This document shows, one piece after another, positions 1 to 48,949 of a DNA stretch of 64,000 nucleotides. Location of the stretch: contig OZ316894.1 in the NCBI GenBank assembly GCA_973895155.1, forward strand, positions 20,900,451 to 20,964,450, read 5' to 3'. Origin of the DNA: Marsupella aquatica. Taxonomy: Eukaryota > Plantae > Marchantiophyta. The stretch's first letter is position 1. The number at the start of each line of letters is the position of its first letter. The position numbers and the translations under genes were made by a program. Under the pieces are notes generated by a model. The model was not told the origin of the DNA. It searched no databases and saw nothing but the letters and a program-made list of their open reading frames with translations.

Positions 1-1685
<1,685 letters not shown>

Positions 1686-14576: not shown

Positions 14577-14667
14577 GTAGAGAAACACAATACAAGATAA
14601 ATGAGCCCGTGTGGATGTTGCCACGCGAATAGTCGCGTCACGGATTTACAGACAAATAACATATCCT

Positions 14668-15377
14668 CTACACTCTGGCCTTTGATAAGTGACGTATGTT
14701 GAAGTACTTCATAAGAACTTGATCAGCATGTCTCTGCATGTACAGATGCTCCCATATATCCTCATTCAAAGTCCAATCTAGATGTAGATTTATAATCGAC
14801 CAGATGGGATAATCCAACGTGTTAGCGAACGCAAGACAAAGCCCGGAATGTGATAGCTTCAGTAAATGTGGAATGAGAGTATCCCTCAAAAAGATATCAT
14901 CCAAGGATCCTTGAAACGTCTTTGTAAACAACAATCCACATACACCTGTCTGGCATGTATGGGATGGACAGGCATCAATCTGGATTATATTCTCTGGTCG
15001 ATAATCTTGAAACATATCACGTAGTCTGTCCATAGATTTGAAGACAACTCTCTTATAACATTTCTTCACATAACCAAGATGCCAGCAATGATCCTGGGTG
15101 AAAACATATCTCAGCTGCGACAGGTCCATGCTCGACAACATTTCTGAAAGTATCTGATAAACCAGTTTATCCTCGAGGGTAGACCAAACCATCACATCAA
15201 AATTATCATAACAGAATTTTAGAAAATCATGAAGATATGGACTCGGAACGACACATAGAGATCCGATACAAATTTCCGTAGTCCACTTGAGCTCAAGAGT
15301 ATATTTCTTAATATAGCATAGAAAGTTTTCCACTCCTAAAACTAGAAGTTGACGCGATCTGCTCCACTTAGTCTCCT
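14668..15377 (-). CDS. FCP1/SCP-like HAD phosphatase domain, copy 2 (degenerate)
   Basis: LLVLGVENFL...PSPYLHDFLKFCYDNFDVMVWST...YVFTQDHC...VVFKSMDRL...ENIIQIDA; acceptor gatttacag. Confidence 0.8.
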
Positions 15378-15649
15378 GTAAATCAACAATTTGATTCTCA
15401 TATTAACCCCTAAACATAACACACAAATTTTAAAAATATAAGTAAACAACAAATGTTTACACGCGCACGGTCGCGTGACTAATGTATCCATAGTTCAATT
15501 CTCATATTATGCAATCAATTCAACCACGCCACCCGAAACGATACTCACATAACAATATAAATAAATCCACACAGCGATGCGACCGGGCGCGTCACTCACA
15601 ACACAAAGTCAAAAGTATAAATAAGAATTATAAATAAATAAATGTTTAC

Positions 15650-16589
15650 TTTTCTTTGGCTTCCATTGCACGGTCTTTCCTATCTGATAATATTCTCATG
15701 AAATTGTCAAACTCTCGTAAATGGTCAGGATTACCCTGAGTACGAATGGTCACATTTTTCCTCCAAAGATTTGCCTTATCAATATAATCCTTCTGAAGAT
15801 TGTCTCAAGAAAACTATGGAATACCATATCCCCGAAGTCGCTCGTGGAATTTCAACTTCGGATTGAACATATCGCACAGATACGGATATAGTTTTTTTGA
15901 AAATGTGTGTCATCTTCTAGCCCAAAATACGCGTCGGGATACACAGACGAGTAGAAGCTATTTAAGCTCGTCTTATAAGCAGCATCATCCATAATAATCA
16001 CATTCTCCTTGTCGTAATCCTTAATATCGGTGGCAATGTCAGAGAGATATTTGACAAATAGGGGAATGTCATTATTACTCTTACCAATAGGTCGTGTTGA
16101 TTCTTGTCCCCAGATAAATTTAATACGGCTCAAAACCTCGGGTCGGAGAATCAGCCTTATACATGATAGAATATTTTGTTTCAACATACACGACCAGATG
16201 GCAATGTCGTAAAGTTCTGACACCTTCACAAGAAATGTCATTAAGTCAAGCCTTGGATAGAAAACCTTGTGCATGTGTTTGACACCCCTTGACCGAATGG
16301 GCATCCCAGGGCTGCTTTGCTCTGACTAGATAAGTACCCAATTTAGGTCAAAAATTACAAGTCTCTTCATTCGAATTACCGGACCTTTCTGTATCGGTGG
16401 CCCTCTGCGCCGATGGATTAGGCGTCGTCTGTACCTGTGATTTTTGTGCCAAAGGATTTGGAGCCCGTACTACCAAGGTCTTTCCCGCCTCCGGGAAATC
16501 AACGGACTTCAGGATTGGTGCCTTCTTTACTGGTGCCTTCTTTACTGGTGCCTTCTTTACTTGATCAGGGGGTTTCGGGCTAGGTTTCT
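15650..16589 (-). pseudogene. FCP1/SCP-like HAD phosphatase domain, copy 1, preceded by a (PVKKA)n linker; stop and frameshift
   Basis: MKRLVIFDLNWVLI*...YPRLDLMTFL...YDIAIWSC...FIWGQES...LFVKYLSDI...ENVIIMDDAAYK. Confidence 0.8.
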
Positions 16590-16673
16590 GTAAAACATTA
16601 GAAAATGAAAAATAAGTTTTATAACACGAACGGTCGCATGACTATAAAGAGAGACTAAAATGAAGTATAATAC

Positions 16674-17471
16674 CTACCCAAGAAGATGGTCGTTCAGCAA
16701 TTGAATTCCGCCGGCAATGTCAATCATAGCAGCACATATCCCGGTACCATGGTTGTCTCCGGATGCCGGCTTTCGGAAGTCCATGTCATATAACGACAAG
16801 ACAACTTCCCTACGGAATTTCTCAATGTCTGCAGCGGAGAAACTAATTTCGCTGCCTTGGCACAAACACTTGGCGTATTTCAACGTAAAAACACCACAAC
16901 TATACCCGTCACTTTGGTGTGGAATATCATTCCGATATATCCGTTCCCAACCTGATATATCCACCTTGACTCCATTTCTCCATAGAATTTCGTCGACGTA
17001 ATACTGCCCAACGATATCGAGCACCTTAGGATTTTGTCAATTTTGAACTAGAGAATCCAGGTACTCGAATCGTTTCTCCTTCGGATAGACAACTGCCAAT
17101 GACCAATGTTCTTTCCCAACAATGTGAACTGGAAAGACTAGTTTGTCGTATTCACTCATTCTTAACGGAAAGTCAACTGTCCAAGATGCTCGGTCCTCAT
17201 AAAAAATGGTAGGATCCATGGAGAGAAGCTCAAAATGGTGTGTTTGGAAGAATTTTACAACCTCTGATTTTCCAACTCTATTAAGAATCAGCTCGAGAAA
17301 GCTCAAATAAGCATTAATTATATCATCGGTAAGCAACTCGCGCGGTCTCAGACACATCATATGTTTCCTCTTGATCGAGTGGTGTAAAAACTTGGTCAAT
17401 ACCTCTTCCATATCCATAGAAGGATCGAGGCATTGATCTATTCGACTACCCAAATTTTCAAAAAATTGCAA
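16674..17471 (-). pseudogene. Ulp1/SENP (peptidase C48) SUMO-protease domain, one internal stop
   Basis: CLRPRELLTDDIINAYL...VFPVHIVGKEHWSLAVV...EYLDSL...PHQSDGYSCGVFTLKYA; the His-Asp-Gln-Cys catalytic set is intact. Confidence 0.9.
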
Positions 17472-17631
17472 AAAACAGAGAATTCAATACGCCTTCAAAT
17501 AACGTACTAAGGTTGTAGCCTACGAGTAAACAGAAACAACAATAAATCAATAATAAAATATAATGACAGGTCCAAAACCCTAACGACAAAGAAAATACTG
17601 GCTGCTAGACTAGAAACAAAATCCTTTCAAC

Positions 17632-19555
17632 TTATAGCTTGCGAATGATCTTTGGATTGGGTGGATCCGGCCTTTTTGCACCGGATTTCTTGGGTGCCTC
17701 CTTCGCAGCTATATCACTAGGAGCTCCCCGGGAGTGCAATGATCGATTCACCGGACCGGTTTGTGAAGGTTGGAGAGATGAGGCGGGAAGACCTTCGAAT
17801 GGTTGTGGTAGTTTATTTAGGTATTCGACCATCTGTGAGTCTAACAAATCAGGTTCCGCAATATCCGCTTTGCCAGTCTCCGGTTGGGCTTCCGAGTGTG
17901 TCGTCTCTGGGTTATATTGTGGCCGAGATCACAAACCCGGTCGCGTGAAGTCAGACTTTAGTCTCTTCATAGTTTGAGCGGATTTGGGAGCCAACTACGT
18001 TCCCAGTTCTTCCACTTGATTCTCGGAAAATCGTACATTATTGGTAATCGTCTCTAGTCTCGATTCACTTGCACTTGTCTCCTCTATAATCATAACACCC
18101 TTCCAGTAATGCACAGCCAAAACTGCCTGGACACGTAGCAGCTCGGGTGAATATTTATTCCAATCCTCCAAGGAGACTGTACCTAATGGTGGATCGTCAA
18201 ACTCAAAGTCCGGACGCAGAAAATAGTCTAATATTTTCTTCTTAATTCCAGCGGACGGCGACGAAGGCTTCCTCAAATTGAGCTTTATTTTAGGTAATCG
18301 GTTTGCCTCAGGAATAAGCGAAAGGTCCCTGGCCTTCTCGGTCTCCTAGCTTCTTCGCCTCCTCCTTCTCCGCCTGCTCCTCCTTCTCCGCCTGCTCCTC
18401 CTTCTTCTCGGCCTCCTCCTTCTCGGCCTCCTTCTTCTCAGCCTCTTTCTTCTCAGCCTTCTCTGCCTCCTTCTTCTCACCCTCCTTCTTCTCGGCCTCC
18501 TTCTTCTCAGCCTTCTCAGCCTCTTTCTTCTCAGCCTCCTTCTTCTCAGCCTTCTCAGCCTCCTTCTTCTCAGCCTCTTTCTTCTCAGCCTGCTCCTTCT
18601 TCTTGGCCTCCTTCTTCTCAGCCTCCTTCGTCTTCTCCTTTGTCTTCTCGGCCTCCTTCGTCTTCTCGGCCTTCTTTTTTTTGGCCTCTTTCTTTTTGAC
18701 CTCCTTCTTTTCGGCCTCCTTCTTTTTGGCCTCCATCCTTGCCTGCGCCCTCCTCGCTTCCGCCCTCTCCGCCTCCTCCCTCTCTGCCTTCAGATTCTGT
18801 GACTCTTCTCTCTCCTCCTCCTCGCTCTCGGCCTCCTTTCTTGTGGGTTCCTCCTCCTCGCTCTTGACCTCCTGTCTTGTCGGTTCCTCCTCCCCGCTCT
18901 CAGCCTCCTGTCTTGTCGGTTCCTTCTCCCCGCTCTCGGCCTCCTGTCTTGTCGGTTCCTCCTCCTTGCTCTCAGCCTCCGGAGGATCCTCTCTTGTCTG
19001 GCCCTGCCTCCTATCCTCATCCACCCTGTCGGCCACTTCTCTCTCTGCTTCAACCGCGGCTTGGACTCTCGCTACCTCTGCCAATGCCTCTGCCTGAAGT
19101 CTGGCTGTCTCAACTCTCTCCGCTTCAGCTCTTGACTTCCTCTTTGCGGAAGCTACCTTTCGAGCTGCCGCCTTCTGCTTCTTGGCTTCTACCTTTTGAG
19201 TCTCTTGTCGGGACGCTTCTAGTCTAAGCGCTTCTTCTCGGGCTTCTTCTCAGGCCTCCTCTTGTCTCACCACTTCTAGTCGGGCCGCCTCCTCCTGTCT
19301 GGCCTCATCATCCACATCCTCCATGTCTTCGTCGGACCCTGCTGTATCTTTGTCAGTCCCCTCATCAAATTTATCAACTTGCTGATTTTCATCAATTTCA
19401 CCGGCTTCCTCACCGTCACTCTCTTTTTTGATTTGGTCATCATCATCGACATCGTTCTGCGGCTCGGTCATCCAATCTAGATCTTGGTCGTCATTGACGT
19501 CCCCATGCCCGTTGTTCACTTTGTCCTCACCAGTAAAGCCACTTTGGACTTCATC
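17632..19555 (-). pseudogene. Acidic and E/K/A-rich coiled-coil linker exon (EKKEA repeats) upstream of Ulp1
   Basis: ORFs 19250-19615 and 18308-19084 are in frame across a TGA. A frameshift near 18345 continues into ORFs 17995-18276 and 17632-17847. Acceptor tttgtcag at ~19555. Confidence 0.7.
18350..18980. repeat. Coding minisatellites: (ttcttctcagcctcc)n and a 36-bp EAESGEEEPTRQ unit
   Basis: Tandem 15-bp and 36-bp units are directly visible. Confidence 0.85.
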
Positions 19556-19683
19556 TGACAAAAATAAAATATATAAATAAATATAATACACAGTAAAAAC
19601 AATGTTCACGCGCATGTTTGTGTGAAGCTCGACAATGTTTTGTTATGCAGAAGAAGCAATTGTAGGGTTTGATATAAATTTAC

Positions 19684-22600
19684 CTTGGATTGGCCCTCGA
19701 GGGTACTCTGTTGGCCGAATGTACATTCTATCTGAATCTTCTGAGAGGGAAGACTCTTGCAACAATTGATAACAAATATGATCAGGAATATGTTGTTCTT
19801 GGAGGACTTCCAAAACATCAGCCTTGAGAGCAGATACGGATGTACGGTACTTCATTAGTTTATCTATACATTTTTCTATACTAGCCCGTACTAGGTCAAT
19901 CAACAACAGCGTTGTATCATTCGTCGTAGTGGTGTGTTGTAGGAAACAAGACAATTCCCCGTGCGTTGTTACGGGGCAGTAATATTTTACATTGGATCCA
20001 GCATCCTGTAAAATAAGAAACATAAATTAGTTCGACCAATATAAATTGTAGTTCAAAATCCAAATCATCTAAAAAGCTAAACCCCACAATGTAAATCTAA
20101 GAACTTACCATTAGGCACTAGATCAAATTCTTTCCTTCACCGAAACATATAGCCCATTCCCCAGATTGGACGAATTGACTAACAATACTTTCAAAGAATG
20201 AAGGATCTTTTCTGGCAAAGTCGTCGCTATCTCGCCGCTCTCTTCAAAATCAGTTATTTTCTCAATCCGATATTTGGACAGCAATTGGAGCTCAAGGACA
20301 TCCGAGTCGCCCATTGTGCTGAAGGCCGAGCTGTGAAAGGCGTATGTTACAATAAGCTTCCTTTCCTTTTGCCGCTTTTGAATATAATTGCTATCCACAG
20401 CAATGTACTGTGTGTATTTCACTAATTCCCATTTGATTAAATAAGACTCAATGGGAGTGGCCACAATAATAACCACATGGTGTGGTTTAGCCCCTATTTT
20501 GCTAGTAGCACGGAATAACCCCTCATAGAATGCGCAATTTGACAAGTGCATCTCTCCCATTGATGAGGAATCAAAATAAATCAAGCTCGCAAGGTTCTTG
20601 TTGTCACGTATGATACAGTCTGCAAACCCAGCATTTTGTATATCCTGCAGGGATTGCAATTTCAGCCTCTCACCGACCGGTCGCACTAGTTGGTTTCCTT
20701 GACTATCAACTGATTTCTGTATTCCTTCCACTAACCTATAGAATATCGGGTCGATCTCTTTCAACAAATTATCATTACTAATATTTACATTTAAGCACTT
20801 CTTCAGATAATCACTCAGTGCATCTCTCAGCTGCTTCAGTACCATCTTGTTGAGCTTAAAGCGATCAATCATTCCTTGGATCCGCAATTTTTGGGCGGCG
20901 TCGGTAAGACTTTTCAGCTCGGCCTGGGTGCCTGTATCCCCGTTGAGTTTACTCAACAAAAGAATCTCAAACTCAACTTTTGTCTTCTTCTCTACATAGA
21001 ATTCCTCCAAACTCCTGCCGCTTGTTGACACCACTAGGGCTTCAGAGGACTTCCTAGCCTTCGCGGATTTCACTTTGATGCTTCTATTTTTGAGAATAGA
21101 CAATTTCTCACTCAACATGTATTCCGCTGCCTTTCGAAGAACTTTGTCTGAGCACCCTTGACAAGAACATAATGACTTCTTAAGAAGATGAAAAGCATTT
21201 GGATTCTCCCCAACCTTGAGGATCTTCTTCTGCAAAATTCCATTGTATATAACAAGCTCTCCTTTCCTTGAAAGTTCATAAACTTCCATCCACTTCTTGA
21301 ATGTTTCATCCTCCATGGTAAAGAGGAACGGAGCCAACTCTCCAAATTTCATTACCTTGTTTTTGCCCATTTGCACCCATGGGCAGACTAAACTTGTAGC
21401 CCTCATAAATACCTGGAAAATGAGATAACAAAGGAGCATAACAATTCTAAGATTGACACGCCCAGTCACGTGACAAAATTAACTTCATAAATCTGTAAGA
21501 AAATGTAATGCATATATCTGTAAGACAATGTAATGCATAAATCTGTAAGAATATAATCGACAAGGGTTTGGTCCATACCTTCCAATTAGGATGACGAGAA
21601 TGTGATCCAGGCCAACCAAATGAGTTCCATATATTACGACACTGTCTGACAATGGTGAAAAATTGCCCCTCTTCCATGGATGTTTGATGACAATGGTTTA
21701 GGGCCCTCGACAGTCCCATCAAATGGATATTATTCTCGTTATTGAACGTTGCCCAAAACATGACAGCTTCTACTATCCCGCATGCATCTCGAACATCTTG
21801 GCTGACATTAGTGTCGTCTTTCAGCAATTTGTAGGCCATGATTGTGTGTTGGCCTCCAAGTATCCAAAAATAACTTCTCTTAATGTCCTCCTCCATTGGC
21901 GCCGATTCGTAGGCCATTCCATTGTAGTCGGCAATTTTGTCGGCTTCGGACTGAACCCACTTTACAGGGACTAAGAAGCAGCATCTCTTCTCAAACTTTA
22001 TAGCCGAATGAGAAAGGAGTGAATTCTTTAGCCTCTCAGTGTAATCCTGATTCCACTCTCGGCATTTGATGTGATCCGGTGCAAGATGACAACGCGAAGT
22101 CTCAATAAAAAAGGACTTGCTGTTAAATATGTTCACAACACTATATTCCTTGAGGAAACTATCGAACAGAGCACCGACATTCTGTGCGGTGATAACTTTT
22201 GGAAGATTCTCCGCCGTGTATGTTTCAGCCTCGGTCACTGGAATGGGCTTTCCCAAGCGAAATTCCTTCTTGAAAGGAATTCTCTTGAACTCAAGGACGT
22301 CAATAATATATTGACAAATCAAATCACCAGTTAATCCCCGTGGATTGGAGGGGTATCCCACACTAGTAACCTTTTCCAAGGTGTGCCTAGCACCTAGAAG
22401 ATCATCGATTCTCCTCTGATTGAAGGTCACATATTGCGTGCGATCCAAACATATGCTGATGTTGTCATCTTGGTTATCGTCACTGACTAACAGAACCAAT
22501 CCCTCAGTACACTCTTGAACACTCAAGTTCTTCTCAAAGAAGCACCCAAGAATTTTTGAATTCTCCAAAATTGTAGCCTTCTCATTTTTTGCAACCACAA

Positions 22601-22817
22601 GACGGAGACTCCCATTCTGAACAATTATTCCAAGTTCGGTTATCTCTGTCAAGTCAAAGAGATGGAGTGTCTTTGTCTCTGTTGTTTCCTCCCTGATAGA
22701 TTTTCCTCGATAAGCAAGAATGGATGTCTCCGTGGGCATCACTCTGGTCTTGGCTTTCTTTTGAGCAACTGATTTAGAGGAGTCTCTTTTCCGCTTTGAT
22801 GTCACCATTGGATCCAT
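19684..22817 (-). CDS. ParB/Srx-like domain protein exons (22817-~21580, ~21412-~20110, ~20006-~19684)
   Basis: CREWNQDYTERLKNSL...FWILGGQHTIMAYKLL resembles the ParB/Srx N-domain GxxH/R motif. Donor (NWK|gtatgg) and acceptor (tttccag|VFMRAT) link the 456-aa and 448-aa ORFs. Confidence 0.6.
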
Positions 22818-23017
22818 TCTGAAAAATACAAATATTGAAAGTCAAACCTTTATTTCAGAATGACAATACGCGCATGGTCACGTTGCGTCGAATTACATTT
22901 TAGGAACTAATCAAACCGAATGGTTTCTTTCCTTGAGGTCAACTTGTCAAAATCCATATCTATAAATAACTATGCGACTGAAAAATTGAAGCACGCGCAT
23001 GGTCGCGTCGCCCCAAA

Positions 23018-24758
23018 TTACATTTTAGGAACGTATTTCTTGACCCAATCCTTTTGCTCCTCGTCATCTAACCAAATCCAATGGTTTCTAAACGTGTCAA
23101 GCTCGGTCCCATCAAAACCACCAAGAATGTCCAGAGGTGGAAGAATTTTGATAGATTCTCTATATCTGATTGCTACATTCCGTGCAGTCAAATGCCTTCC
23201 AAGCGATTCATATCCAGGTCTATCGGTGAAATCGTTTGCTACCAAGGTGACCGTCGCCCAAGTACTACTATAAGTAACTATGTGACGCCACTTCTTACTG
23301 ACTATTCGAATGGCGATCAAGTCCATGACCCGTTTTTTAATCGCATTATCTGACAAATTTCCAAGCAAATAGAAAAACACTTTGACTAAAGGCCAAATAT
23401 ATTTCTTGATAATATCGTCCGGGAGGCCAAGTATCAGTGATTTTGCATTACTCCATATCATGTTCAGATTTATAACCTTTGCACTTGCAATTTGATCCAT
23501 CATCATTTGACGATGAGATTTCCGATTCATGTCAAAGGACTGCAACATCATATGGAAAAGATTAAGAAAGGGACCCTGTCCATCAGGAACTAGAACCACC
23601 AAGATTCTGAGTAAATGTACCAAACTTTTCGACTAGAAGAAGTCGCTCTTCTTCATCTAAACAGTCATATCTGTCACTAAATAATAACACATTGCCGCAA
23701 CTAGTAGTCCCAAGAATGGGTATTTCTGGGAGCAGAGAGATATCCTGTCGAATAACTTGACAGACTGAGTCAAATTCCAAATCCTCAGTCCCGGGTATGT
23801 AGGAAAGTGCGTCATTTGCGTTGTCGACCATCCGGTTTGCTTGTTTTAGGCTAGCCCATAACTTGGTATTCGTAACTAGAAAGTCCCACTTCTTGCTACA
23901 CGCTCCAAGCCGGATAAGGTCTTGGACCCGAGCCACAACCAAATCGTTTTTGGTAAGTTGATATCTACTCAATCCTTGAATTGAAATAAAGTATTCGTAT
24001 AATATTGGCCATATTCTCGAAATGACCAAAACATCTGGTAATCCTCCTATGAGACGAGAGGAGGTTTTATCGAGCATGTCCCAGATATCTTTCTGTTCCC
24101 TTTCATGAGATGAAAGAAATCTTGAGCCAGATTGAGGAGTTCGCTCATCCTGTTGTTATCAAATCACAAAACATTGTTAGAAGTTGTCTCACGCGCCCGG
24201 TCGCGTATGTTAACAACTAGCATTCAGGTCATCCTCAAGGTACCCAACTTTGTGGCATCTTATTGTAAACTGCCATTTTTCAACTAGGTGAAGAGCATCA
24301 TAGGTCTTTGTAAATAGTTCTCTAAGAACGCTGGACATCGACCCCAGGAATTTAATTCTTGGGTATTTCTTAAAGAAACTTTGCACAGTCGATGAGAGAG
24401 ACTCATTTGGGATTGATTTAGCAGTATGTCTTGGGAAATCTAAATCTAATAAACTCAACTTGATTATACCCAATAGATAGGTATTACCAACAAGGTGGCA
24501 CCATCTGCGACACACCAAAGATAGTCCAATCAACTCATTCAATTCCTTTGTTGAGAAATTTCCTGCATTAGCCGAGCAATTAAAGGAATCCTTGATTCGA
24601 GGCCAAATCAATTCCGCGACAATGTTATCTGGAAGTCCAGGTAATAGTGTCTCAACAAAGACAGAATATCCCTCCATTAGGCCATCTTGGGTTCTGTCGG
24701 GAACGTCAAATATAGGGCAGAGATATTTGAAGCTCTCAAGACTAGGTTCCCCCATCAA
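23018..24758 (-). CDS. Three tandem F-box-like domains
   Basis: LLPGLPDNIVAELIWPRI..LSLVCRRW; LIGGLPDVLVISRIWPIL..LGACSKKW; LILGLPDDIIKKYIWPLV..IRIVSKKW; similar C-terminal halves. Confidence 0.75.
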
Positions 24759-25214
24759 TGAACCTCTATTTTGATTTGTAACGCGAGTGGTCGCGTCAAA
24801 TAATCAAAATGTTTCCTTCGATCACGGAACTAACTATAAGAGGTCTAACGAGCACGCGACTGGTCATGTTAACTGCACCTAACATGCGACTGGTCGCGTC
24901 ACCTAATCCTCGGAAATCTCTAAACCTCCCGTGTGGAGATCTACCTCACACTCGACTGGTCGCGTCAAAAGATAATCCAAAATTGATCGAACAACAAACC
25001 AGGAGTAGTCACAATACCTGTACGGACTGATAAATCCAAATGCGAACATGGAATTATTAAAGTGAGATACATGTCGTGCGCATACATATCGCTACACAAC
25101 ATACATCGCTTGTCCCATACATCCAGACATAGTCACACTGCCACATCACAAACACAAGAGAATGGAATACAAGTGGAACTCATGTCCACACATGTCCAAA
25201 ACCCACAATAAACA

Positions 25215-25398
25215 ACATTGAAGGGCCCTGGTATTCAAATTGAATTGGCTAGTGATGCGCCAATCTTTCGTAGACCATACCGTTATAGTGACATGGAGAG
25301 AGCTCTGATTCAAAGCAGAACTCAAGATTTGTTGGAGGCTGGATTGGTGGAGATTTCATATGGGGAGTATGCATCTGCCACAGTGATGCCAGCCAAGA
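25215..25398 (+). repeat. 184-bp inverted duplicate of 26538-26721 (RT N-terminal region)
   Basis: Reverse complement matches without visible mismatch; both encode KGPGIQIELASDAPIFRRPYRYSDMER...VMPAK. Confidence 0.95.
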
Positions 25399-25399
25399 T

Positions 25400-32136: not shown

Positions 32137-33129
32137 CTATGCAGTGCCCCACACTGGTGGCACAACACTGCCAACAGGTAATCCTCGCATGATGTGCTCC
32201 TCATGAGACTCCTCCAATGGTGGAACATCGGCTGCATGCACATTACCCTCAATCAAATCATCAGGTCCAGCAATTACACCACTGAATGCTGCCAAAGACA
32301 ATGGTGTGGATTTAGGGCCTCCCACAGGTCCACTAAATCTCACTGGCAATTTGCTCAATCGAGCATCTCCTGACTGCCAATCAGGTCTATATGACATTGA
32401 TTCCTCCCAAAAATCAAGAATAAATCCCATGGGGTAGAGCACTGTACATCCCACCAACACATCATATGACTCTGCCTTAGTCAGAATAGCTCGCGCCTGT
32501 ATCTGTGAGCTATCTGTGGTATGACCTTCCTGAATCCTCAAATCAAGTGGTCTCCTGGTGATATGTTGTGTAGGTGTAGGTCCCCCCAATGAAGTCTGAA
32601 TGGGAAAGGGACAATCCTCCAAATCCTCTGGACGCAATCCCAATCCACGTAGGGCAGACTTCCCCAACATCAAGGGCTGAGCACCAGTATCTAGTAACAC
32701 TCTCTCTGGCTGGTATACTGCTCCAAAAGGCCCAACTAATCGGAAGATACCACTCCGATTATCCAATGATACAACACTAGGTTTAAACCTAGTCCTCTCA
32801 AATGCAGGGCGTGCTGGTAAATCCACCAACCTTGCTGCTGTTGCATGCCATGTCTCACTAATAGCAGTAGGTGGTATGGTCTTCACTGCTTCAACACTGC
32901 AAGCTGCTTCTGCATGGGAAGCAACAACTGGAGTGTCCTCATAGAGTGTAGCTGCCAATCTGAACACTTGTGCAGGACCAACTCCCAAGTTCAGCATGTC
33001 TCTCGCTGAAAATAATGGGGCGCGTACCATGGCAGTAGTCGCCCCCAGCAAGGTACCTGTCATCCCTGCTGCATCACTACCTGATTCTGCCAACTTACCC
33101 ACATCAGGGTTTGTCTGAACCGGGTTCAT
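32137..33129 (-). pseudogene. Retroviral-type aspartic protease region
   Basis: RVLLDTGAQPLMLG ... YDVLVGCTVLY. Confidence 0.8.
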
Positions 33130-34529: not shown

Positions 34530-36479
34530 AGTCGCGAATACAACTTTCACCTACTCGTAATTGCTCCGGCGTTGCCTAACTCCAGCGTTGAGCCCCTCTT
34601 AGATTTGCTACCATCATGGCCATTAGGGATGCGACTAACAAAGAGGAGGCTAGTAAGAGCAAGGACAAGACTTGAGAAAAGCGCGCTCCAATTAACTTTA
34701 TTGGGCCCATTGCCGATCACGGAAATATGAACTATTTTTCTGACGGATCACCATAGGGGCCCGAGAAACCCCACATGAGCCCGATCAGGGGGCCGCATAT
34801 TTCTCGACCAACGGACCCAGGGGCCAAAAGTTATGGCCGACTCAAGCCGCATGCTTGTAGTTTGGGCCCGTTGCCGATCATGGAAAAATGAACTATTTTT
34901 CAAACGGATCACCATAGGGGCCCAAGAAGCCCCACATGAGCCCAATCATGGGGCCGCATATTTCTCGGCCAACGGACCTAGGGGCCAAAAGTTATGGCCG
35001 ACTCAAGCCGCATGCTTGTAGTTTGGGCCCGTTGCCGATCATGGAAAATGAACTATTTTTCCAACGGATCACCATAGGGGCCTGAGAAGCCCTACATGAG
35101 CCCGATCATGGGGCCGCATATTTCTTGGCCAACGGACCCAAGGGCCAAAAGTTATTGTCGACTCAAACCGCATACTTGTAGTTTGGGCCCGTTGCCGATC
35201 ACGGAAAAATGAACTATTTTTCCAACGGATCACCATAGGGGCCTGAGAAGCCCCACATGAGCCCGATCATGGGGCCGCATATTTTTTGGCCAACGGACCT
35301 AGGGGCCAAAAGTTATGGCCGATTTAGACTCGATTAGAGTCGCCGCGCATCGATGGACCAAGAGGGGGTTGCCTGGACCAGGGGGGGTTGCCTGGACCAG
35401 AGCGGGGTTAGGGCCGTAACTTTTAGCCCCTTATGCCACAATTCGCGCTCGAGGCCAAGTTACGAAAGGTTTTCGATTATCTTCGTTTCGAGCTAAGTGG
35501 CGGGGCCCACGGACCCTCAGGTAGGGGGCCAAAGATAGGGGACCAAAGCTGGTCCGGGGGTGGCAGGTCCCTAGAAGCATATATGAGGGGAGTGGTCCTC
35601 TCAAGTTTGAGCTCGAGCTGATCGCGATCGACGAAGATACGTCGTTTCAAGTTTTGAAGCAAAAACAAACATAACTTGACGACCGGATCTCCGTTGGGGG
35701 AGTTTTTGGGCTCGTTGGAAAGCTAATGAAGAAAGCTACCTCATGGTGCTCTCTGATTGTACATTGGATGATTTTGGTTTTGAGGCTTGCAATGGGGGGA
35801 GTCCCTCTTGCCGATCCGAAGTCGAACAGTGACCAAACCGCATTTGGTTCCCACGGGGACCTGATGTTGGAGAGGTAGAACCAAGTAGACTCTGGGGGCT
35901 ACCATTGAGATCTGGTCCCGATGCATGGTGAGAGGTTGAGTGGAACCCGGTTTCGCAGAGAGGTGGCTAAGATCTAGAAACTGAATGGTCCCGGCGTGTT
36001 ACTACTAGTTTGTGACAAACTGAGTTTGGGCCATGGGCATGTCCTGGAGGCAGGACGGTCAGCCATTGACGGGTAGAAAGTGGGGAAGCTTGGGCGACAT
36101 CCGGTAGATAGACTATTCTGGACGAACAGTGATGTCGACCTTAGTTTCAGCTTATGGCAAGGCCATGCGGGCCTGGAAGGCTCTATCCGCTGACCTACTT
36201 ACTAACGACTGTTGAGCTTGAGGCAAGACAATGGTCTTGGGAGTTCCAAGATCAAGACAAGTTCTTACCGGTTGGTTGGTTGCTTGTGCAGATAGCAAAG
36301 ACCGTTGAGCGACGGTTGTGCTGACGAGGGCAAGTGCGGCTTCGTATGGGAGGGGTCGCTAACGACAAGGAGTATAGTCGGGGAGAAATTGCCCCAACAT
36401 TCCGTGTTAGTGCAAGGTTCGATTTGTTTCAAGGCTGAGAAACGAGTTTGGACGGGCACGTGGTGGGAGGGCCACCACT
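34530..36479. mobile_element. 1950-bp non-coding insert in gag (AGT..ACT ends with GTTAC TSD, or CAGT..ACTG ends with TTA TSD)
   Basis: gttac|agtcgcg...caccact|gttac; removal restores the gag frame. Confidence 0.85.
34700..35322. repeat. ~158-bp tandem repeat x4
   Basis: Unit ttgggcccgttgccgatca(c/t)ggaaaaatgaactatttt...ggggccaaaagttatggccga. Confidence 0.9.
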
Positions 36480-36864
36480 GTTACGCAATGTCTGCATATC
36501 GCACCACGTATCAAACTCCTGGATGAAGTCATCTAGATCAATTGTGCCAACTGCACCAGAGTATCGTCATGGGCCCTTTGTAGCCCCGTACATCTCGTCC
36601 ATATCCCACAACAAAGGTGCAACCACCTGATGATGAGGAGAACTGGTCACTGAGTCCTCATCAGAATCACTGTCTGAAGCTGCACTGCTGACTGCTACCA
36701 ATGCCACTGGCCGAAACTGTGCCCCACTCCGAGTGAAACCGGTCCGTCGTCCATTGGGTAATCCAGCAGCACCAGAAGAATCCGTGGTGACCAACCCTAA
36801 CCTAATCTATGTGCTAACCCTAAGGGCAATTTGTCCCTGTCAGCACCACAAGCACTCACCATGG

Positions 36865-39514
36865 TGTGTTGGGCATCACTCCAACATCACCAAGAGAGAA
36901 ATACACAGCACACTAGAATGTCCGGTTGTGTGGTATGGGTGTCCCTGCAATTTTTTCTGGAAACTTGTTTATTTTTAGCATATCACAAGATTTACTTACA
37001 CTTTAGACACCTTCCGGCCAACATTTACTTGTTCTGGACACTTATAGAAATATTTGACATCTCCGGCTTTCCTGACGATTCCTAGTGTACTTTGCCCGAC
37101 GCTGTGACCAGCGCCCGTTTCTTTTACTCAAGACGCTGCGGAAGCGTCCAACCTCCTCATGACGCTTTTGGCAGTGCCCGACCGCCACCAAGACTCTATG
37201 AGGATTTCGACCGACGCTGTGGAAAGCGTCAGCTTCAACACACGACGCTGTGAGCAGCGTCCACCCTAGTATTGACGCTGTGAGCAGTGTGAGCAGCGTC
37301 CGTTGGTTTTACTTAAGACGCTTCTAGCAGCGTCCAGATTCTCCCGACGCTTCTAGCAGCGTCCGCTCAACACTTAGTTTTTGAAGTAGATTACTAGTAA
37401 AGTAGTATTCTACCACCCTTGTTGAAGTACTTATGCTGTGCTTCTCCCTTGTTTAGTTTTAAGCTTGGAAAGGCACGACTGTTCTTACCTCCTCCATTTT
37501 AGGATTCCAGCACTTATAAGACAGAGTAGAATGCTCATTTGAAGTAGAGAGAAATAGAGTTAATACTGTATTCAGAATTGAGTCTTCTGAATAGTTTTCT
37601 CCTCCTTCCATTGTAACAAGGCATGCTGTGAGTGTTTTGTATGGAAGTAAAGCTATATTGATTGAAGTTAAGATTGAATTCAAGAGATTCCTGTGGTGAT
37701 TGAATTCAGTTGCAGATTTCTGAAACTCGTATTGAATTCACTGCTAGGCTTGCTTGCAGAGTCGGGATTCGCTAGCCAATTCAAGAATAGTTAATGATAA
37801 ATGAGAAGTAAATTCTGATTCTCAGAGTAGTTAGTACTGTTGCTTTGATTCTGGAATATGGTTTAGAGTTTGACTGAATTGCGTATCGCTGATGTCAAAC
37901 CATGTTGACGGCATTTTAAATCATATCATTCATTTGCAATCAGAAAGCTTCTGCTTCATCAGATTGAGAATTCCATTATCATTAACCTTTGTGTTTTGAA
38001 GAGTGAGATGGATGAATTATGAGATAGATTTCATGTCTATACTGAGCCCAAATCCTTTCTGAAGGAGTGGCAGTAGCAGCTTGTAGTCTCTAAATCCTTA
38101 CTCATTTCTTCTCTAATTCATAAATCAGAAGTTCAGTTACTTTGTTGTTTGTTTATTCGATTTTTTTTATTGAGAAGTGAAGTCAACATAGAGCTCAAGA
38201 CTCTAAATCACTCGGAGTGATAAAAGTTATACAATTCATTCTGAAATCTGTTCTTAAAGGGATCGAAACCCTGGTTTTAGGTGAGGAGAGTCACTTTTGA
38301 TACTTAGCACTATACGACAGGTTGCAAACCCGGATCACTCCTATGGAATCAAGCGCCCATACCGAACCAACATGGCGCATAAACAAGAAACAAGTATGGA
38401 GAGGATCCAATCAACAAGAATAGTCAAACATTAACTCTCCACACCAAGAGTGATCACACATTGATCAAACAAATATTCATAATGTTCAATGAAAGACCTT
38501 CGTAATAGGCTTCATGATGTCCCAATGTTATAGATGAAAAACCATGCAGAATTGGTTCAATCTGTGTATTTAGATGAACTCAAAGCTATCAAAAACCTCT
38601 AAAGAGCCTTTGATTTGGCCCGAAACAAGGCTCTAAGCAAACCGGAAAGTGTACAAAGCCCCCTGGCGTTTAAATCTAAACAACAAGTTGTGAAAACTTG
38701 TGTGTACACAAGGTGGGATGAGAACTTGCCAGTTAAGCGCTTGCGGCTGGGAATAGCCCTGGAATGGGTGATCTCTTCACGCTCGATCTCGTGCCTCCCC
38801 TCGCGCTCGCGACCTGGAATAGCCCCGGGATGGGTGACCTCGACCTCGCGCCTGCTTGCGCTCGTGACGGCTGACTTTGCGCTTGCGGTTGGGAGCACTT
38901 TCGGGATGGGTGACCTCACGCGTCGCCTTATGCGTGCACAGTTGTGTGTGTACACCAAACAGAAGTCGTCGGGCTCAGAAATGGCAACATTTGCCACTCG
39001 AAAGCAGCGATTTCCTTCACAAAAATGGCAACGTCGATGGCTCTCGACCTCTGCAAACCTGTCGCGCACGGTTCTGGGACATTTCGCAAGCGTCCCTTGA
39101 CAATAAAACGCTACGAGCACTCAAAATTCCAACAGATCCGTCTACAAAACAGCAGTGCGATACAAGCAGCAACCTTCGGCCATCTCTTTCCAGATCCAGA
39201 TCTGGACTCCGACTCAATCCAGATCTAGACCAGATCCAGATCCAACAACGTTCAAGCTTGGCCAGAACCAGATCGAATAGCAACAAAGTACTCAAACAAT
39301 AGAACCAACGATTCAAGAAACATGAATCCACGTCAAACACAAATCCAATTGATTCGAGCTACCACGAACCGTCACCGTCAACGACAAACTCAGACTGAGC
39401 TTCTATCCACACAACAGAGTTTGAAGCTCATGATCTTTCAATATAATCTCCATACAATTGGCACAACGATCCCGGTCAACAATACCCCATCGATCCCGCA
39501 CCGATCCGATCACA
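36865..39514. mobile_element. Possible older solo-LTR-like insert in the 5' region of the gypsy element
   Basis: TGTGTTGG...CCGATCACA ends with an imperfect duplication catgg/cacgt; non-coding interior. Confidence 0.35.
36929..38319. mobile_element. Solo LTR (1391 bp)
   Basis: ggttg|TGTGGTAT...ATACGACA|ggttg: 5-bp TSD and 7/8 terminal inverted match; internal gacgct..agcgtc repeats at 37098-37363. Confidence 0.85.
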
Positions 39515-40599
39515 CACGTATGTCAAGCCAACGCACCTTGCACTACTCAAGGAATCCACGTTACACAAGCGGAGCTCACAGCCACCATAGCCACTCAAGC
39601 TCCTCTCTCTCCAAGGCTCAACATTGAAAGATGACCTTTCAATGCCTCACAAGTGAGAAGTACCCTCTCACACAAACCTGACGGAACCTTATCGGCTCCA
39701 ATAGCACTCATACCAAATGTACATACTCTAATAGCACGATATACTACTACACTACTCAGAATGGTGTGACATACATTCATGCAAAGATATATTTATTAAT
39801 TGGATTCAGGCAGACCAGTATTGAGTGTATTCATTTAGATAACAGGCGATCAATGGGATTCATTCATAATTATAAGCAATCACAATATTCATGAAGTTTC
39901 CAATATTACTATTCAAATGTTAGCGCGCTGTGATTGTGAAACAATCATATGTCAGAAGTTTTCATATTGCAAAGAATTCAGTTTAGCATGATTCACAAAG
40001 CATCGGTCAGTTAAAATTATTAAATTGTACAAGCTACTGCTGGTTGTTGAGTCGATTGATATGATTCAATGTAATATAATAAGATGAGTCAATTGCACAG
40101 CCTGGAAGTTGTATGACATTGTTAATATGATCAGGTTATATTTGAGTTAGCTTGTATGATTCGGTCATATTTGAGTTTACAAACACAAACTGCATCAAAC
40201 TCAGCTTAATGATCTGTAGAATGATCTCAGGAAAAGTACCTGAATTCTGACAAATTGATCGATGTAATCGTCTGAGAGATAGAAATCAATTTCCACTTAA
40301 AGACCTTGCTGCGGCATTCTAGAAAGAACGTATAAGATTGAAATCCCAGATTGATGTATTAAAGATAGAAGCTAAGCGAATATCTCGAGGTAAACAGTTC
40401 TTCCACTGAAATTGCAATCAAGGCGGCAAGGAACTCACTATCTCGAGGTAAACAACCACTTCTAGAGATAGAATCATACGCTATTGGTAGAATGCTAAGA
40501 ATGAATTAAAGCATAAACCTGATCAATGAAAGAGCTGAAACAAACTTGATGATTGAAACGATCTGAGGCAGGCTGCCAAAAATGAGTTTGAGCTGCTAG

Positions 40600-40920: not shown

Positions 40921-43325
40921 AACAAACAAAATGGGGCGGACGAGAGCAGGCGCGTGAAGGTCCTATGGAGCTGGCGCGGGAGACAACAACAATGAACGAG
41001 AGAACTGACAAGAAGTGAACAACAATGAACTCAAGACCGTGTGCGCCGTCACTAAGTAATGCGAATTAGGGTAACCATTTTAACGTAACCCTAATAAGCC
41101 TACGCATCCTACGGATCAGAAGGTTCTGGATGATCTCCGTACACGTTCCTAAGACTCAATCAGTACGAAGTAGGCAATTGTGAAAAGAAGATTACCGGAA
41201 TCTTCTTGATTGGCCGTACTCAACGAGATTTTAGTTGGATCGCCAATTTGAAATTTAAACCGGTAATTATGTAGTTGCGATAGATTTTGGTAGTGGAGAC
41301 CCCCGGATCCGGATCCGTATCTCCACTCTCTACATCGTGCCAATTCAAATTTGAGTATCGAGCCAATTGAAATCCAAACTCCTGGGTAACGTAAAAAGAT
41401 TCTCACGATCGAAGTGAACCGATATTCAAAGTCAATCCATTTTGGAAGTGGACAATACCAGATCCGTATGTCCACTTGCACGTTGAATAGCAACTCAATT
41501 CAAAACTCAAGAAAGTATCGTGCCAAATCCTAATTCCTGAACAACGTACAATGATTCTCACGACTGGAGATTGAATCAATTTTCAAAATCAAAACCGATC
41601 CAGATGAACACATCCTTCATGGAGTCAGACTACTCTCATCGTTCACGGATCATTCTTCATTTTCAGTTTCTCCTGACTAGCGGAACTCTCAGCGGACGCT
41701 GATCCAAGGAAAATTTGAGGCGGAGCTCATTGGATCATTCGACCATTCCAGGCGGGGCTCATGCAAGCAACTCAGGCGTAGTTCATTGTATGACATTCTA
41801 GGGAAGGGCTCAACCGACCCCAGCGTAGGAGTTCTAGCGGAAGTGAGACGATGAAGTTATAGGATCTCTATAGTCATCCTCGCTTATTCGGAGCATTCTA
41901 GTGGACCAACAAAGAGCAACTAGTTAGAAGGCACTTTCTGTTCGAGGATTTTGATCTCGATACGATCAAGAAGCTTTCATTTTCTGGTTGAGGCATTCGG
42001 TCTGGATACAATCAAGATACTCAAGGCAATTGGAGTCCGACGAAAGGTTTGCGAGGAGCAGGAGGCTTGGCTGGGAGGAGGGTGTTTGCCATAATTGCTG
42101 ACGGAGACAACACGCAACTGAACATCTTGTAAGTACGCAATTCCGCAATCAATGACGAGATTAATTGCCTTCAATCACGCATTCAATTCATGATTTGTCT
42201 CCATGAAGTTATGATCGAATTCAATCACTCCTCAATCAAGTCCAATCCGGAAGAAATCTATCACCATGAATTCCTTCTATGAAGTACTACGGTAGTCGTC
42301 AATCAAAATGAAATCTTCACAGTCCAAACTAGTGTGTCTTCCAATTTTACATGGCCGTACATATGGGTATTTTAACATACAATCGACTCTAGCAAATTAG
42401 CCATAATTTACTTTTATATCTAAAGTCTTTGTTTCATCACGCGCCTAGTCGCGTATTGTTTTAGAGGAGAGGATATACTCTCCACTCTTAAATCTAATCG
42501 CACTCCATTTCTGAGATCCGATTAATCTCTATTTATTAGTTACTTTACTTAGTCATTGAGTAGAACTCCACGCGCACAGTCGCGTGACATAATTGACCTC
42601 AGGTCAGATTCTCTCAAGAATCGAAGCCAATATCTATTCGTTTACCGCCCCTGGTTGCCTTGTTTGGGGATGACGGGCACGTTCCCCATTCTGGTTGACT
42701 TACCACGCGCACAGTCGCGTCATTCTTCCTGCTGTATTCTAAGGTAATATAGATGTAGTATAGTATCACTCAAGCCTATGTTATTTTGATCATTAGAAAA
42801 AGACTCTCAGCCCTAGGTGGTCTAAACTGACTTCATTCAGATGAACCTAATTATTCCAGACACCGGTAAACATGCAAGGCATTCCAAACATACATACATG
42901 GAGCACTATTTGCGGATTTAATACCCAATCTTGTTCACAGTGCACGCGCACAGTCGCGTCAAAATTATTGTTGTCTTCTAAGGTAATTTAGATATAGGAT
43001 CGAATCACTCCAGTCTTAGCGGTTCTCGTTGTTGACTAAGAAGCCATCTTGAGAATCATTTCAACAAGAATTCACTTCATTCAAATGACTTGAATTATAG
43101 TAGAAGCTAGAAAACATAAATGACCATTCTAGAATATTTTTTCGTCGATTACCAAAAAAGACTACATCCATCCCGAAGGACTTCAAATGTGGAATCCATT
43201 TCCATTGAATTGATTCCGTTAAAATATATCCCTACGGGATGAAATCTAGCTACATCGTATCCCTACCGAGTTCTAACTTGGACTACGTTTTACTCAAATT
43301 CAATAAGCTCTAGCCTTACATCGAG

Positions 43326-43829
43326 TCAATCATTCCACGAAGATGGCATCCACTCATCCGTGTCTGGCGTGGATTCGCCAAAATCCAAGAATGCCTTCTT
43401 TGCCCAAGCTCTATGGTCCATAAATTTGTGTGCGTTGCTCGGCTTCCTCCTTCTGTAATACAGTTCACAATCTTCCTTCATCTCTAATTTCCTTTTTGTA
43501 GTTGCGTCCACGTTCTTGGCCTCCTTCTTGACTTTCTTAGCCTCAGCTGCTGCCTTGACCATAATAGAATTGATGCGTACTTTGGCCTTCAACTTTTCCC
43601 CGGATTCCATCTTTGGATTCGACACGGTTGGATTGCTCTCCATCTTATCTTCCGTCGTCAAATGTGGCAAACAGTGGGTTCTCTCACAAAACATTTGACC
43701 TCTAGATGTAGTCACCGCAAACATGATATCACATCGCTTACACAATCTGAAAGGAGTACCACGATAGATAGAATCTTCTGCATTGTCTGTTGGAACATCC
43801 ACATTCTTCAAGCTCATCGGCTTAGCCAT
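43326..43829 (-). CDS. Orphan 167-aa basic protein with a Cys/His cluster
   Basis: Intact ATG ORF; CKRC...CERTHC; Lys-rich C-terminal half. Confidence 0.5.
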   Translation of the reverse strand: MAKPMSLKNVDVPTDNAEDSIYRGTPFRLCKRCDIMFAVTTSRGQMFCERTHCLPHLTTEDKMESNPTVSNPKMESGEKLKAKVRINSIMVKAAAEAKKVKKEAKNVDATTKRKLEMKEDCELYYRRRKPSNAHKFMDHRAWAKKAFLDFGESTPDTDEWMPSSWND

Positions 43830-44025
43830 CGCCCTTCAAGCAAGAGATGCGGACCGAGACTAAGAATTTGGAGTGAAAGGAAAGACTCTTCTATTGGGAG
43901 CAAAGGAAGGGAGAGCTGATGTGCGATTACATTATCCAGTAACCAGAATGTTCAATGCATGGAGAATGGGCAGTTTAGACATCATCTCAATGCTTTATAG
44001 TCTTTACTCTTCACTACTGTGGATA

Positions 44026-44220
44026 TTGTCAATTAAGTGGCACAAATGTAGGGCGGAATCTAGGTTGGTTTCTAGAAGAGAGTAATCGTCTGTCAATTCA
44101 GTGGCACAGATGTAGCGCGGCATGTAGGATGGTTCTACAACAGAATAACCGTGTGTCAATTAAATGGCACGAATGTAGGGCGGAATCTAGGGTGGTTTCT
44201 CGAAGAGAGTAATCGTCAGA
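44026..44220. repeat. ~64-bp tandem repeat x3
   Basis: tgtcaatt(a/c)a(g/a)tggcac..atgtag.gcgg.at.tagg units. Confidence 0.7.
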
Positions 44221-45189
44221 CTGGCACGGAATAGAATTGGCTGCAAGCTGAATTGTCGTATAATTATGGCTTTAATTTCACTGTCGACGACTGGCCCGAA
44301 ACGTACTGATTGTTAGTGATGTACTGGAATGATTATGAGGTCCTCAGTAGATACTGACTGTCCAGTGTCCACTCAGTGGTGTATCTTATTATTAAATCGC
44401 AATTGTATCTTACTTATGAATCGCCAACTACAAGCTAGAGTTTGGGTCTAGGCTTCTAGCTTCTAGGTTTTAGACCCTATGGGAAATAGGAATCTATAAT
44501 GTTGAATTGGTCATGGGCTAGCCTAAGGGTCTCCCGCACATTTTCAGGCCGTGTCCACCCGAACCTAACTCGGGCAACTGCAAAACTCTCCCGGCCTGAT
44601 ATTTGAGTCCCCCAGTAGGAAAACCACTTCACGCATAGCGCCGCGACACAACTCATTGCTAACTACCCCAGCAAATATTGGCCTGAGTATACCTAGTTTT
44701 GGTCCGCCTGACAGCTTTGCGGGCTGCCCATAAGGTCAGATTTTTCCCCATATCTAAGACGCCCTAATAATGCTTGTGAAGAGGTCAGTCGTGTCATTGA
44801 GGGTCTCCCCCGTGTCTTTGGCAAGGGCCTCCCACTCCCGTGCCTTCATTATGGACCCCCCCTCGGGATATCATTTTTGAGCGATGCGTCGCCCTCCCCT
44901 CGGTCCCGATGCGCTCGCTCCTTCCTCTCGCCCTCCGCTCCATAAATGCCCTGGCCCGACTCCTTATGGGCCGGCCCTCCTTGCGCCCTGCAACGCACGG
45001 GTATAGGGCTCGTTCCACAATAGAATGTTACGGAAGAAGCATGACGCAACTGGTCGCGTAATGGATTGGCTAAACTAAGCCCTCAAGAAGCATCACACGA
45101 CAGGTCGTGTGCAGTATTTTGTCCTTACTTTGGTAGTTGACGGCCATGACAGGACAACACGCTTATAGTCATATTCGCTATTGTGCAGG

Positions 45190-48857: not shown

Positions 48858-48949
48858 ACAGTAATGAAGCATGTAGTTTAGCATACAGTTTAAAAGACAA
48901 CTCATAATAGTAGTAGCCAGAGAACTCAAGTTTAGACAAGTCTTATCGT

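Follow-up and report, generated by a model that had tools for sequence, protein, structure and literature searches.

A CpG palindrome in the non-coding DNA of a giant Sola-like liverwort transposon, a candidate operator for an element-encoded ParB-like protein

ParB-like accessory proteins encoded by transposons have been described in two algal genome papers, both of which propose that these proteins let the element bind and modify its own DNA (PMC12477816; 10.1101/2025.02.11.637652). In the brown alga Ectocarpus, the 21.5-kb element Sola1-1_Ec32 carries a gene with ParB and N4/N6-methyltransferase domains opposite its transposase (PMC12477816). Plavaka elements (EnSpm) of the red alga Bostrychia carry a ParB-like gene, PAG3, with adjacent tandem inverted repeats, self-binding being offered there as a proposal only (10.1101/2025.02.11.637652). 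One of the two papers names VANDAL elements as the only proven case; in Arabidopsis, VANC binds motifs of 8–9 nt in introns and other non-coding parts of these elements and lowers methylation, and VANC21 was reported to lower it on silent copies without a change in transcription (PMC5735166). Adenine methyltransferases fused to a ParB helix–turn–helix (HTH), from phage ParB-terminase loci, are known in chlorophytes and chytrids (PMC4738411). Here, we describe a giant Sola-like DNA transposon from the liverwort Marsupella aquatica, which carries a ParB-like gene and a 16-bp CpG-rich palindrome dispersed through its non-coding DNA. The stretch analysed (the window; all coordinates refer to it unless a locus is named) comprises 64,000 nucleotides of contig OZ316894.1.

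The element spans 13517–49697. Its transposase matches DUF7869 and contains three candidate Asp motifs (HDKMDH, QLDN and GHTHEDVD), which may be those of Sola-type transposases. A terminal inverted repeat, perfect over 17 bp (13517; 49681–49697) and imperfect to ~60 bp, falls within the 11–1124 bp taken as the Sola criterion. Both ends are bordered by the target-site duplication GAAT (13513–13516 and 49698–49701); 4-bp duplications are typical of Sola elements, which are known from moss, whereas those of Mutator elements are 7–12 bp (PMC10741241). Because of the 4-bp duplication and the transposase type, a CACTA or Mutator identity was rejected; a gene for the TnpA-like protein named in the preliminary description was not found inside the element ends by Pfam scan.

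Compared by published description, the element resembles Sola1-1_Ec32 in type, in size (20.6 kb, or 20,555 bp, once an LTR block at 25072–39771, a solo-LTR-like piece at 44404–45017 and a 304-bp piece are subtracted), in the position of the accessory gene opposite the transposase between one pair of ends (gene on the minus strand, transposase on the plus) and probably in the combination of ParB-like and N4/N6-methyltransferase(-like) domains. It differs in host, in a methyltransferase-like domain that looks catalytically inactive, and in cargo that adds one Ulp1, three NIF and three F-box-like segments; no binding motif is described for Sola1-1_Ec32 in the accessible text of its report (PMC12477816). 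As in the PAG2/PAG3 Plavaka elements, a ParB-like accessory gene for which self-binding can be proposed lies beside inverted repeats across families. There, however, the repeats form tandem arrays next to PAG3, ParB is fused to a 2OG oxygenase, the methylase is in a separate gene and the transposase belongs to another superfamily, whereas the window element has single sites dispersed in introns and spacers, their word changing by lineage. With VANC/VANDAL the element shares family-specific short motifs accumulated in non-coding DNA (introns, intergenic and terminal parts), motif and protein evolving together. VANC motifs are 8–9 nt long, non-palindromic and tandemly repeated, in contrast to a dispersed 16-bp palindrome; binding and hypomethylation are proven for VANC, whereas for the window system they are proposals. 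No VANC-like gene was matched in the Pfam scan of window open reading frames (ORFs), and the 4-bp duplication is not that of a Mutator-like element. The chlorophyte and chytrid fusions likewise join a ParB-related part to a prokaryote-type DNA methyltransferase in eukaryotes, but are Dam-type with the ParB HTH only, whereas the window protein combines a full ParB/Srx fold with a PF01555-like domain.

The gene class is thus published for brown and red algae. In our literature search we met neither a member of the class from land plants nor a description of intronic palindromes particular to a lineage, although the Bostrychia supplement (Supplemental Fig. 13, Table 6) may list repeats per family. 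The new part is the lineage-specific words at a land-plant locus and its relatives; with these loci the class reaches the land plants, and candidate sites distinct for each lineage become available.

Copies and placement of the palindrome

For the motif ACGCG(C/A)NN(A/G)GTCGCGT, with the ideal palindrome ACGCGAC-NN-GTCGCGT, about 19 copies had been claimed. Searches of the window with this palindrome returned 15 sites at up to two mismatches; over 100 dinucleotide shuffles the mean was 0.03, and no shuffle gave more than 1. At up to three mismatches there were 21. The 21 sites are spread over 13139–24950 and 40940–45095 only, and 20 of them are enclosed by the element ends, the exception being a weak three-mismatch site at 13139, outside the left end. 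While the site family stands, its supposed ideal sequence does not, as no copy equals it. The consensus of 18 seed sites, ACGCGACYRKKCGCGT, is slightly asymmetric (ACGCGAC-YR-KK-CGCGT), and is matched exactly by 8 of the same 18 sites from which it was derived. Seventeen of these share one orientation, with 15577 the lone opposite. The frequent CpG to TpG/CpA changes noted previously were also seen, CpG transitions accounting for 12 of 15 departures from the consensus.

With the asymmetric consensus at up to two mismatches, no hits were obtained in 1–13000, in the nest at 25071–39800 or in 45201–64000, and no motif copy at that threshold lies in the host genes, nested retroelements or long interspersed element (LINE) of the window, as had been described. 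The clusters at 24781–24965 and 42439–42959 and the pair at 45044 and 45095 are located as reported. Mean pairwise identity across seed sites is 77% within the motif and 27–28% in the flanks, and information content reaches background within 1–2 bases of the motif ends. An origin as remnants of duplicated intron sequence, which would entail conserved flanks, was rejected, since site flanks are unrelated in the window and in relatives; the site is supported as specific to the element rather than left over from duplicated introns.

None of the 14 cargo sites tested, strong or weak, falls within a predicted exon. Of the span from first to last exon, 12.6% is non-coding, and the eight strong sites within it are all non-coding (p ~6e-8, conditional on predicted exon borders, with 14 coding segments and 12 gaps). 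Strong sites occupy 6 of these 12 gaps, two more hold a weak or half site (17931 and 19608) and four are empty, a correction to the claim of sites in most introns. Only one predicted cargo intron, 21413–21578, has outside support, in the form of a protein of the liverwort Calypogeia fissa that runs across it and an in-frame join. In several cargo segments (13885–16325 and 23018–24803; also at 5726 in L010 and 4389 in L011, two of the related loci below), a stop is followed by a site-bearing gap and then a new splice acceptor, a pattern that suggests alternative splicing from a shared leader.

Palindromes of related lineages

In scans with a distant alignment, 9 of 131 candidates from metagenomes and 2 of 49 from genomes proved to be relatives of the ParB-like gene, giving 11 loci (L001–L011) on contigs of 1–7 kb. 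As L001/L002 and L003/L004 are near-identical pairs, these represent five independent lineages. Scanning metagenomes with close relatives of the window confirmed none of 179 candidates, and none of 66 was confirmed in viral contigs, where motifs A and B (below) also had no copy; because the viral scans were empty, a viral origin is without support.

The window motif is absent from all 11 loci, and each lineage instead has its own palindrome: GTTTGGGTCG-NN-CGACCCAAAC in lineage A (3 sites in L001, 13 in L002), TTTACGAACG-NN-CGTTCGTAAA in B (11, 10, 3, 2 and 3 sites in L003–L007), TTATCCTCGA-N-TCGAGGATAA in C (L008, 3 sites, or 4 at a looser cut), TATCGTCGA-N-TCGACGATA in D (L009, 1 site) and ATTCAGCTCGA-N-TCGAGCTGAAT in E (8 sites each in L010 and L011). 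A motif-by-locus table gave zero cross-hits between families, and CpG is present in every family motif. At all 11 loci a palindrome site lies in the intron after the ParB exon, a position that also holds a site in the window. Exon models were made for seven loci, and there 56 of 57 sites fall in non-coding DNA; the sole exonic site, a B site at 4227 of L004, is in frame with one mismatch. Sites often directly follow a splice donor, and both L002 and L003 have nine sites upstream of the ParB-like ATG, some neighbours in these clusters sharing flanks. A blind palindrome search ranked A, B and E as the top family and C second. In 30 Markov shuffles per locus, the best palindrome family had at most one copy, against 13, 10, 3 and 8 observed. 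The exon order ParB, methyltransferase-like, acidic recurs in relatives, with a NIF exon next in L011; NIF was matched in that locus only, and no transposase, Ulp1, F-box or zinc-finger match was obtained in L001–L011.

Lineages C, D and E, whose motifs share a TCGA-N-TCGA core, group together with 97/97 support in a tree of 21 ParB domains; A, B and the window fall outside this clade. Related palindromes accompany related ParB-like proteins, and co-variation of motif and protein across subfamilies, suggested as a test in the preliminary description, is supported. Six gene-plus-palindrome sets (the window and A–E) are now known as DNA, which makes a comparison of cognate and non-cognate pairs feasible.

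Within the 4.8-Mb bin that contains L010 and L011, all 16 motif E sites lie on these two gene-bearing contigs. Another contig of this bin, L029, has an open 963-codon transposase, 27–50% identical to that of the window, and an end that resembles the window's terminal inverted repeat. It carries a sixth motif, TTTAGCTCGA-N-TCGAGCTAAA, all seven copies of which are non-coding (null 0–1); they flank the transposase on both sides, four of them within 0.75 kb of the element end. Translated in one frame, the sixth motif reads SLARLELN, the same peptide as the intron read-through tail of the ParB-like protein P0038, a sister of the E proteins in the ParB tree. On this peptide evidence only, ParB-like gene, palindrome and Sola-like transposase would be linked in a further family. 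L010, L011 and L029 (contigs C269, C243 and C71 of G001) are intron-containing eukaryotic transposon contigs in a cyanobacterial bin; judged by their sequence, that cyanobacterial genome record is contaminated with eukaryotic contigs.

The motif is restricted to non-coding gaps of the element, clusters upstream of and inside the ParB-like gene, and occurs in related lineages as their own version at the same places. We infer that it is very probably the site of a two-fold symmetric DNA-binding protein encoded by the element: the arms are fixed, the 1–2-nt spacer is free (partly so in the window) and flanks are unrelated, which argues for a symmetric reader, and the motif changes from family to family, which argues for an element-encoded one. 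Also weighed were a site for a host transcription factor and a neutral relic, left by local duplications or by a tiny mobile element. Plant factors such as CAMTA bind CGCG boxes, and some adjacent sites do share flanks, both in the L002 and L003 clusters and in a local 93-nt duplication that holds sites 42705 and 42944 of the window. Six other lineages, however, have different words at the same positions with flanks unrelated overall, window host genes and other elements have no site, and motif E is confined to two gene contigs; this account is largely refuted and is given very little credence. We give even less to the sites being RNA hairpins that steer splicing of a multi-exon cargo transcript. 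Intronic placement, often just past the donor, the one-way orientation in the window and motif E variants that alter both arms jointly would all suit hairpins, but the sequence is fixed within a family (arms 88–99% identical, flanks 25–30%), a 1–2-nt spacer is too short for a loop, and sites also occur between divergent genes and downstream of the transposase.

Which element protein would read the site is a separate matter. The Sola-like transposase might bind it and so help to pair the ends of a very long element, for which the subterminal repeats of CACTA elements provide a model. The transposase is flanked by sites in both the window and L029, and would itself co-vary with the family. Strong sites in the window, however, are internal and intronic, staying at least 1.1 kb clear of the left end and 4.5 kb clear of the right one, and inverted repeats accompany ParB genes on EnSpm/Plavaka elements that use a different transposase. 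Binding by the transposase is consequently rated improbable, and the ParB-like protein the likeliest reader, since the sites gather around and inside its gene at a distance from the element ends, and since ParB genes of another, unrelated superfamily of transposons also have inverted repeats beside them. Several points weigh against this preference. All loci but L029 were found through the ParB exon, which places the gene beside the motif by construction; shared descent makes every element gene, transposase included, co-vary with the motif, so co-variation cannot tell the ParB-like protein from the transposase as reader. Lineage D consists of one site on a 1.9-kb fragment and was missed by the blind search, and the one-way orientation of 17 of 18 window sites is not explained by a symmetric reader.

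The ParB-like protein and the CpG record

In the window the ParB-like gene is on the minus strand. Exon 1 (21579–22817) encodes an N-terminal domain and a ParB/Srx-fold domain, exon 2 (20123–21412) a helical region and the methyltransferase-like domain, and 18308–20005 comprises exon 3 and an acidic, charged low-complexity exon, in the same order as in L002, L004, L010 and L011. A 2264-residue ORF, P0034, contains ParB-like and methyltransferase-like regions in one intronless frame. The sole named close relative is from C. fissa (CAM6103508.1; 30% identity over exon 2, E 2e-50), and an exon 2 profile matched exon 2 of the metagenome relatives (E 2.3e-5). A high-depth subfamily of the element has one extra base at 20199, a difference that would account for the premature stop with which exon 2 ends in the window.

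Folded with 39 relatives, exon 1 gave a model with pLDDT 82.8. Its eight best structural matches all have the ParB/Srx fold (Z 8.4–5.1), the top match being PadC (Z 8.4, rmsd 3.1 over 98 residues), then KorB (Z 8.3); structures of the bacterial ParB/Noc/KorB group (7ol9, 6ryk and 8qa8) are among the fold matches. The ten top Foldseek rows are ParB, Noc or PadC. With Noc, PadC, ParB and KorB as its best matches, the model supports the earlier claim of a ParB-fold protein in the element. To be set against it are the Foldseek E values (best 0.006, with no match at E ≤ 0.001), an exon 2 model that was unusable (pLDDT 35) and the result for the helical region following the ParB fold, where family scans gave no HTH match.

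The canonical CTP-binding motif of ParB is GxxR. Its arginine is absent from all 18 distant members aligned, with G-Q/M-H-T/S in its place, bordered by an invariant Arg upstream and Asn downstream; conserved across the 18 are Arg, G-Q-H (17/18), Ser and Asn. Bacterial ParB, Noc and KorB with parS, Noc-binding (NBS) or operator sites are alike in ParB/Srx fold and in having several palindromes of 16–23 bp near the gene, and unlike in the nucleotide motif, in the HTH, for which the family scans gave no match here, in the ParA partner (no ParA ATPase among 46 window ORFs scanned) and in lacking introns and a methyltransferase-like C-terminal domain. By analogy, the palindrome would work like a VANC motif or a ParB operator, while belonging to neither ParABS nor VANDAL/VANC.

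For the methyltransferase-like domain, feature comparison of the C-terminal half of L002 gave N6_N4_Mtase look-alikes at 0.91, which share 148–155 features, under the tool's usual same-family mark and so a point against the assignment. No Pfam or PDB sequence match was found for this domain, nor a PDB sequence match for the ParB domain. Active N4/N6 methyltransferases have a (D/N/S)PP(Y/F) catalytic motif and an FxGxG cofactor loop. In six aligned sequences neither is intact: the catalytic strand reads DFRNIP, DFRGIP, DLRDVP or YFDSSS and the cofactor loop is altered, so that the domain is likely inactive. This bears on the possibility that the palindrome is the target of an active N4-cytosine/N6-adenine methyltransferase writing a protective mark on its own DNA. 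The look-alikes and the CpG in every family motif would accord with such a role, but the lost catalytic motif speaks against it, and sites of 16–23 bp are long for a methyltransferase target; we regard it as highly improbable here, the same idea having been proposed for the Ectocarpus protein (PMC12477816).

The history of CpG loss was followed as the NCG share of NCG plus NCA codons in coding exons. The cargo has a share of 0.35, host genes one of 0.45 and the relatives' genes one of 0.48–0.50, whereas it is down to 0.05 in the window transposase and 0.06 in the gypsy pol (cargo versus transposase, Fisher p 3e-9). The L029 transposase, with sites on both sides, has a share of 0.47, in a host that differs from the window's. 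Retention in the cargo fits local protection. Against this, the LINE keeps an NCG share of 0.45 without any site, the ParB exons taken by themselves fall below the remaining cargo (odds 0.40 versus 0.61), the sites themselves are not fully spared (12 CpG transitions) and retention may reflect recent capture of the cargo, which may have a different history from the transposase. The transposase exons, which start ~0.1 kb away from two sites, have lost CpG to the same degree as the gypsy pol; this speaks weakly against long-range spreading. Together with the GxxR arginine missing from 18 of 18 members and the lack of an HTH match, this depletion weakens the load-and-spread behaviour put forward in the preliminary description.

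KorB is a plasmid repressor. Its place among the top fold matches raises the question of whether the same ParB-like protein could regulate transcription or splicing of the cassette to which it belongs, leaving methylation unaffected. Sites are most densely clustered upstream of the ATG of its gene (nine in L002, nine in L003 and four in the window) and of the transposase, as such a regulator would have it. Sites nevertheless persist in every intron of the ParB-like gene and downstream, more than a promoter operator needs, and the cargo retains its CpGs; on balance a pure regulator seems unlikely, with self-regulation of expression ranking next after anti-silencing, the likeliest purpose by analogy with VANC.

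Our preferred reading, then, is that the palindrome is probably a family-specific operator of an element-encoded homodimer, most likely the ParB-like protein, that would keep the cargo unsilenced. Granted a symmetric reader, there is a good chance that it is this protein, in which the helical stretch that follows the ParB fold would contact the DNA; the conserved nucleotide pocket would serve as a switch or enzyme site and the methyltransferase-like domain, its catalytic motif lost, as a binding module. Whether the outcome would be local anti-silencing in the style of VANC, without spreading over the whole element, we rate as evenly balanced. New sites would be created by short duplications within the locus, and older copies would be lost through CpG changes. 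If binding holds, this would add to VANC a further, unrelated system of sequence-specific anti-silencing and supply the first ParB-type protein of a eukaryote whose DNA site is known, possibly offering orthogonal 16–23-bp targeting modules for plant epigenome work. A more speculative extension, to which we lend only tentative belief, is a radiation of giant transposons in early-diverging land plants, in which a prokaryote-derived ParB-type nucleotide switch is loaded at family CpG palindromes in its own introns: a eukaryotic parS–ParB code, with at least seven natural protein–site variants, marking self DNA and shielding it from host methylation. The product of a small ORF at 43326–43835 (minus strand), which has a possible Cys/His zinc-binding pattern and no family match in the Pfam scan, may also be a palindrome reader.

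Layout of the element and its surroundings

Inside the left end, the terminal inverted repeat (13517–13577, plus strand), which resembles the L029 end, is followed by a weak site region at 13642–13667 (plus strand; three mismatches at 13642, matrix score 16.7 at 13652). Three NIF/CTD-phosphatase-like segments lie on the minus strand at 13885–16325 (PF03031; E 1e-13, 6e-8 and 4e-7); NIF2 and NIF3 join in frame and NIF1 is frameshifted. An exact consensus site separates NIF2 from NIF3 (14623–14638, minus strand), and two sites, 15461 and the oppositely oriented 15577, fall between NIF1 and NIF2 (15461–15592). The adjoining Ulp1/C48 protease segment (16674–17519, minus strand; PF02902, E 4e-11 and 2e-9) has an in-frame stop, and a site with two CpG transitions occupies the predicted intron after this exon (16624–16639, minus strand). 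Ulp1 cargo is also known from Mutator-like elements.

All sites from here to 24965 are on the minus strand. Between two ORFs lies a half site with its first half intact (17931–17946, score 20.3), and the matrix scan placed a weak site at 19608, in the intron between exon 3 of the ParB-like gene and the acidic exon. The conserved intron after the ParB-like exon has a site with two CpG transitions (21456–21471), and two sites (22868 and 22993; 22868–23008) are just 5' of the ATG. Three F-box-like segments (PF00646/PF12937, E 1.5e-4 to 7e-3) follow on the same strand at 23018–24803, with a site between the first two at 24191. The cluster at 24781–24965, four sites upstream of the cargo exons, resembles the upstream clusters, of nine sites each, in L002 and L003.

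The nested LTR-retrotransposon block (25072–39771; TG...CA ends, TACA duplication) is free of sites. A 184-nt inverted repeat of 100% identity (25215–25398 and 26538–26721) surrounds an inverted gypsy pol piece in it, and points either to a local inversion of very recent date or to a fold-back in the assembly. Beyond the block are a weak site at 40940–40955 (plus strand, score 16.6) in a cargo promoter or leader, inferred from likeness to the L002 and L003 leaders, and a cluster of four exact sites on the minus strand (42439–42959). The solo-LTR-like insertion at 44404–45017 has a CAAT duplication and no site. Two minus-strand sites (45044–45110) precede the transposase, a broken copy at 45200–48857 (plus strand; PF25273, E 1e-37) with stops, frameshifts, a 304-bp insertion at 46673–46976 and no strong site inside. 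This insertion is of very high depth and absent from other copies. A divergent palindrome-like site (49220–49235, plus strand, score 15.2) lies between the transposase and the right terminal inverted repeat, which ends at 49697 and with its GAAT duplication occupies 49634–49701 (minus strand).

The element is repeated in the genome, contigs of four to five public runs covering it far deeper than the unique flank. In run X4, collapsed element pieces reached ~400–530 and the transposase ~700–730, against 19.9 in the unique flank; these contig depths are a sign of repetition rather than copy numbers, and no single contig covers the whole element. One collapsed high-depth subfamily was traced from 13.6 to 49.4 kb. 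The element itself sits in another, lower-copy repeat (9711–13512, 49702–55450 and 62300–64000; the unique contig ends at 9740), which contains degenerate ORFs, a 144-bp tandem array with Cys-rich frames (51118–52400) and a LINE insertion. The host gene adjoining the insertion, at 6797–7816 on the minus strand, is an SGS3-like XS/zf-XS RNA-silencing gene.

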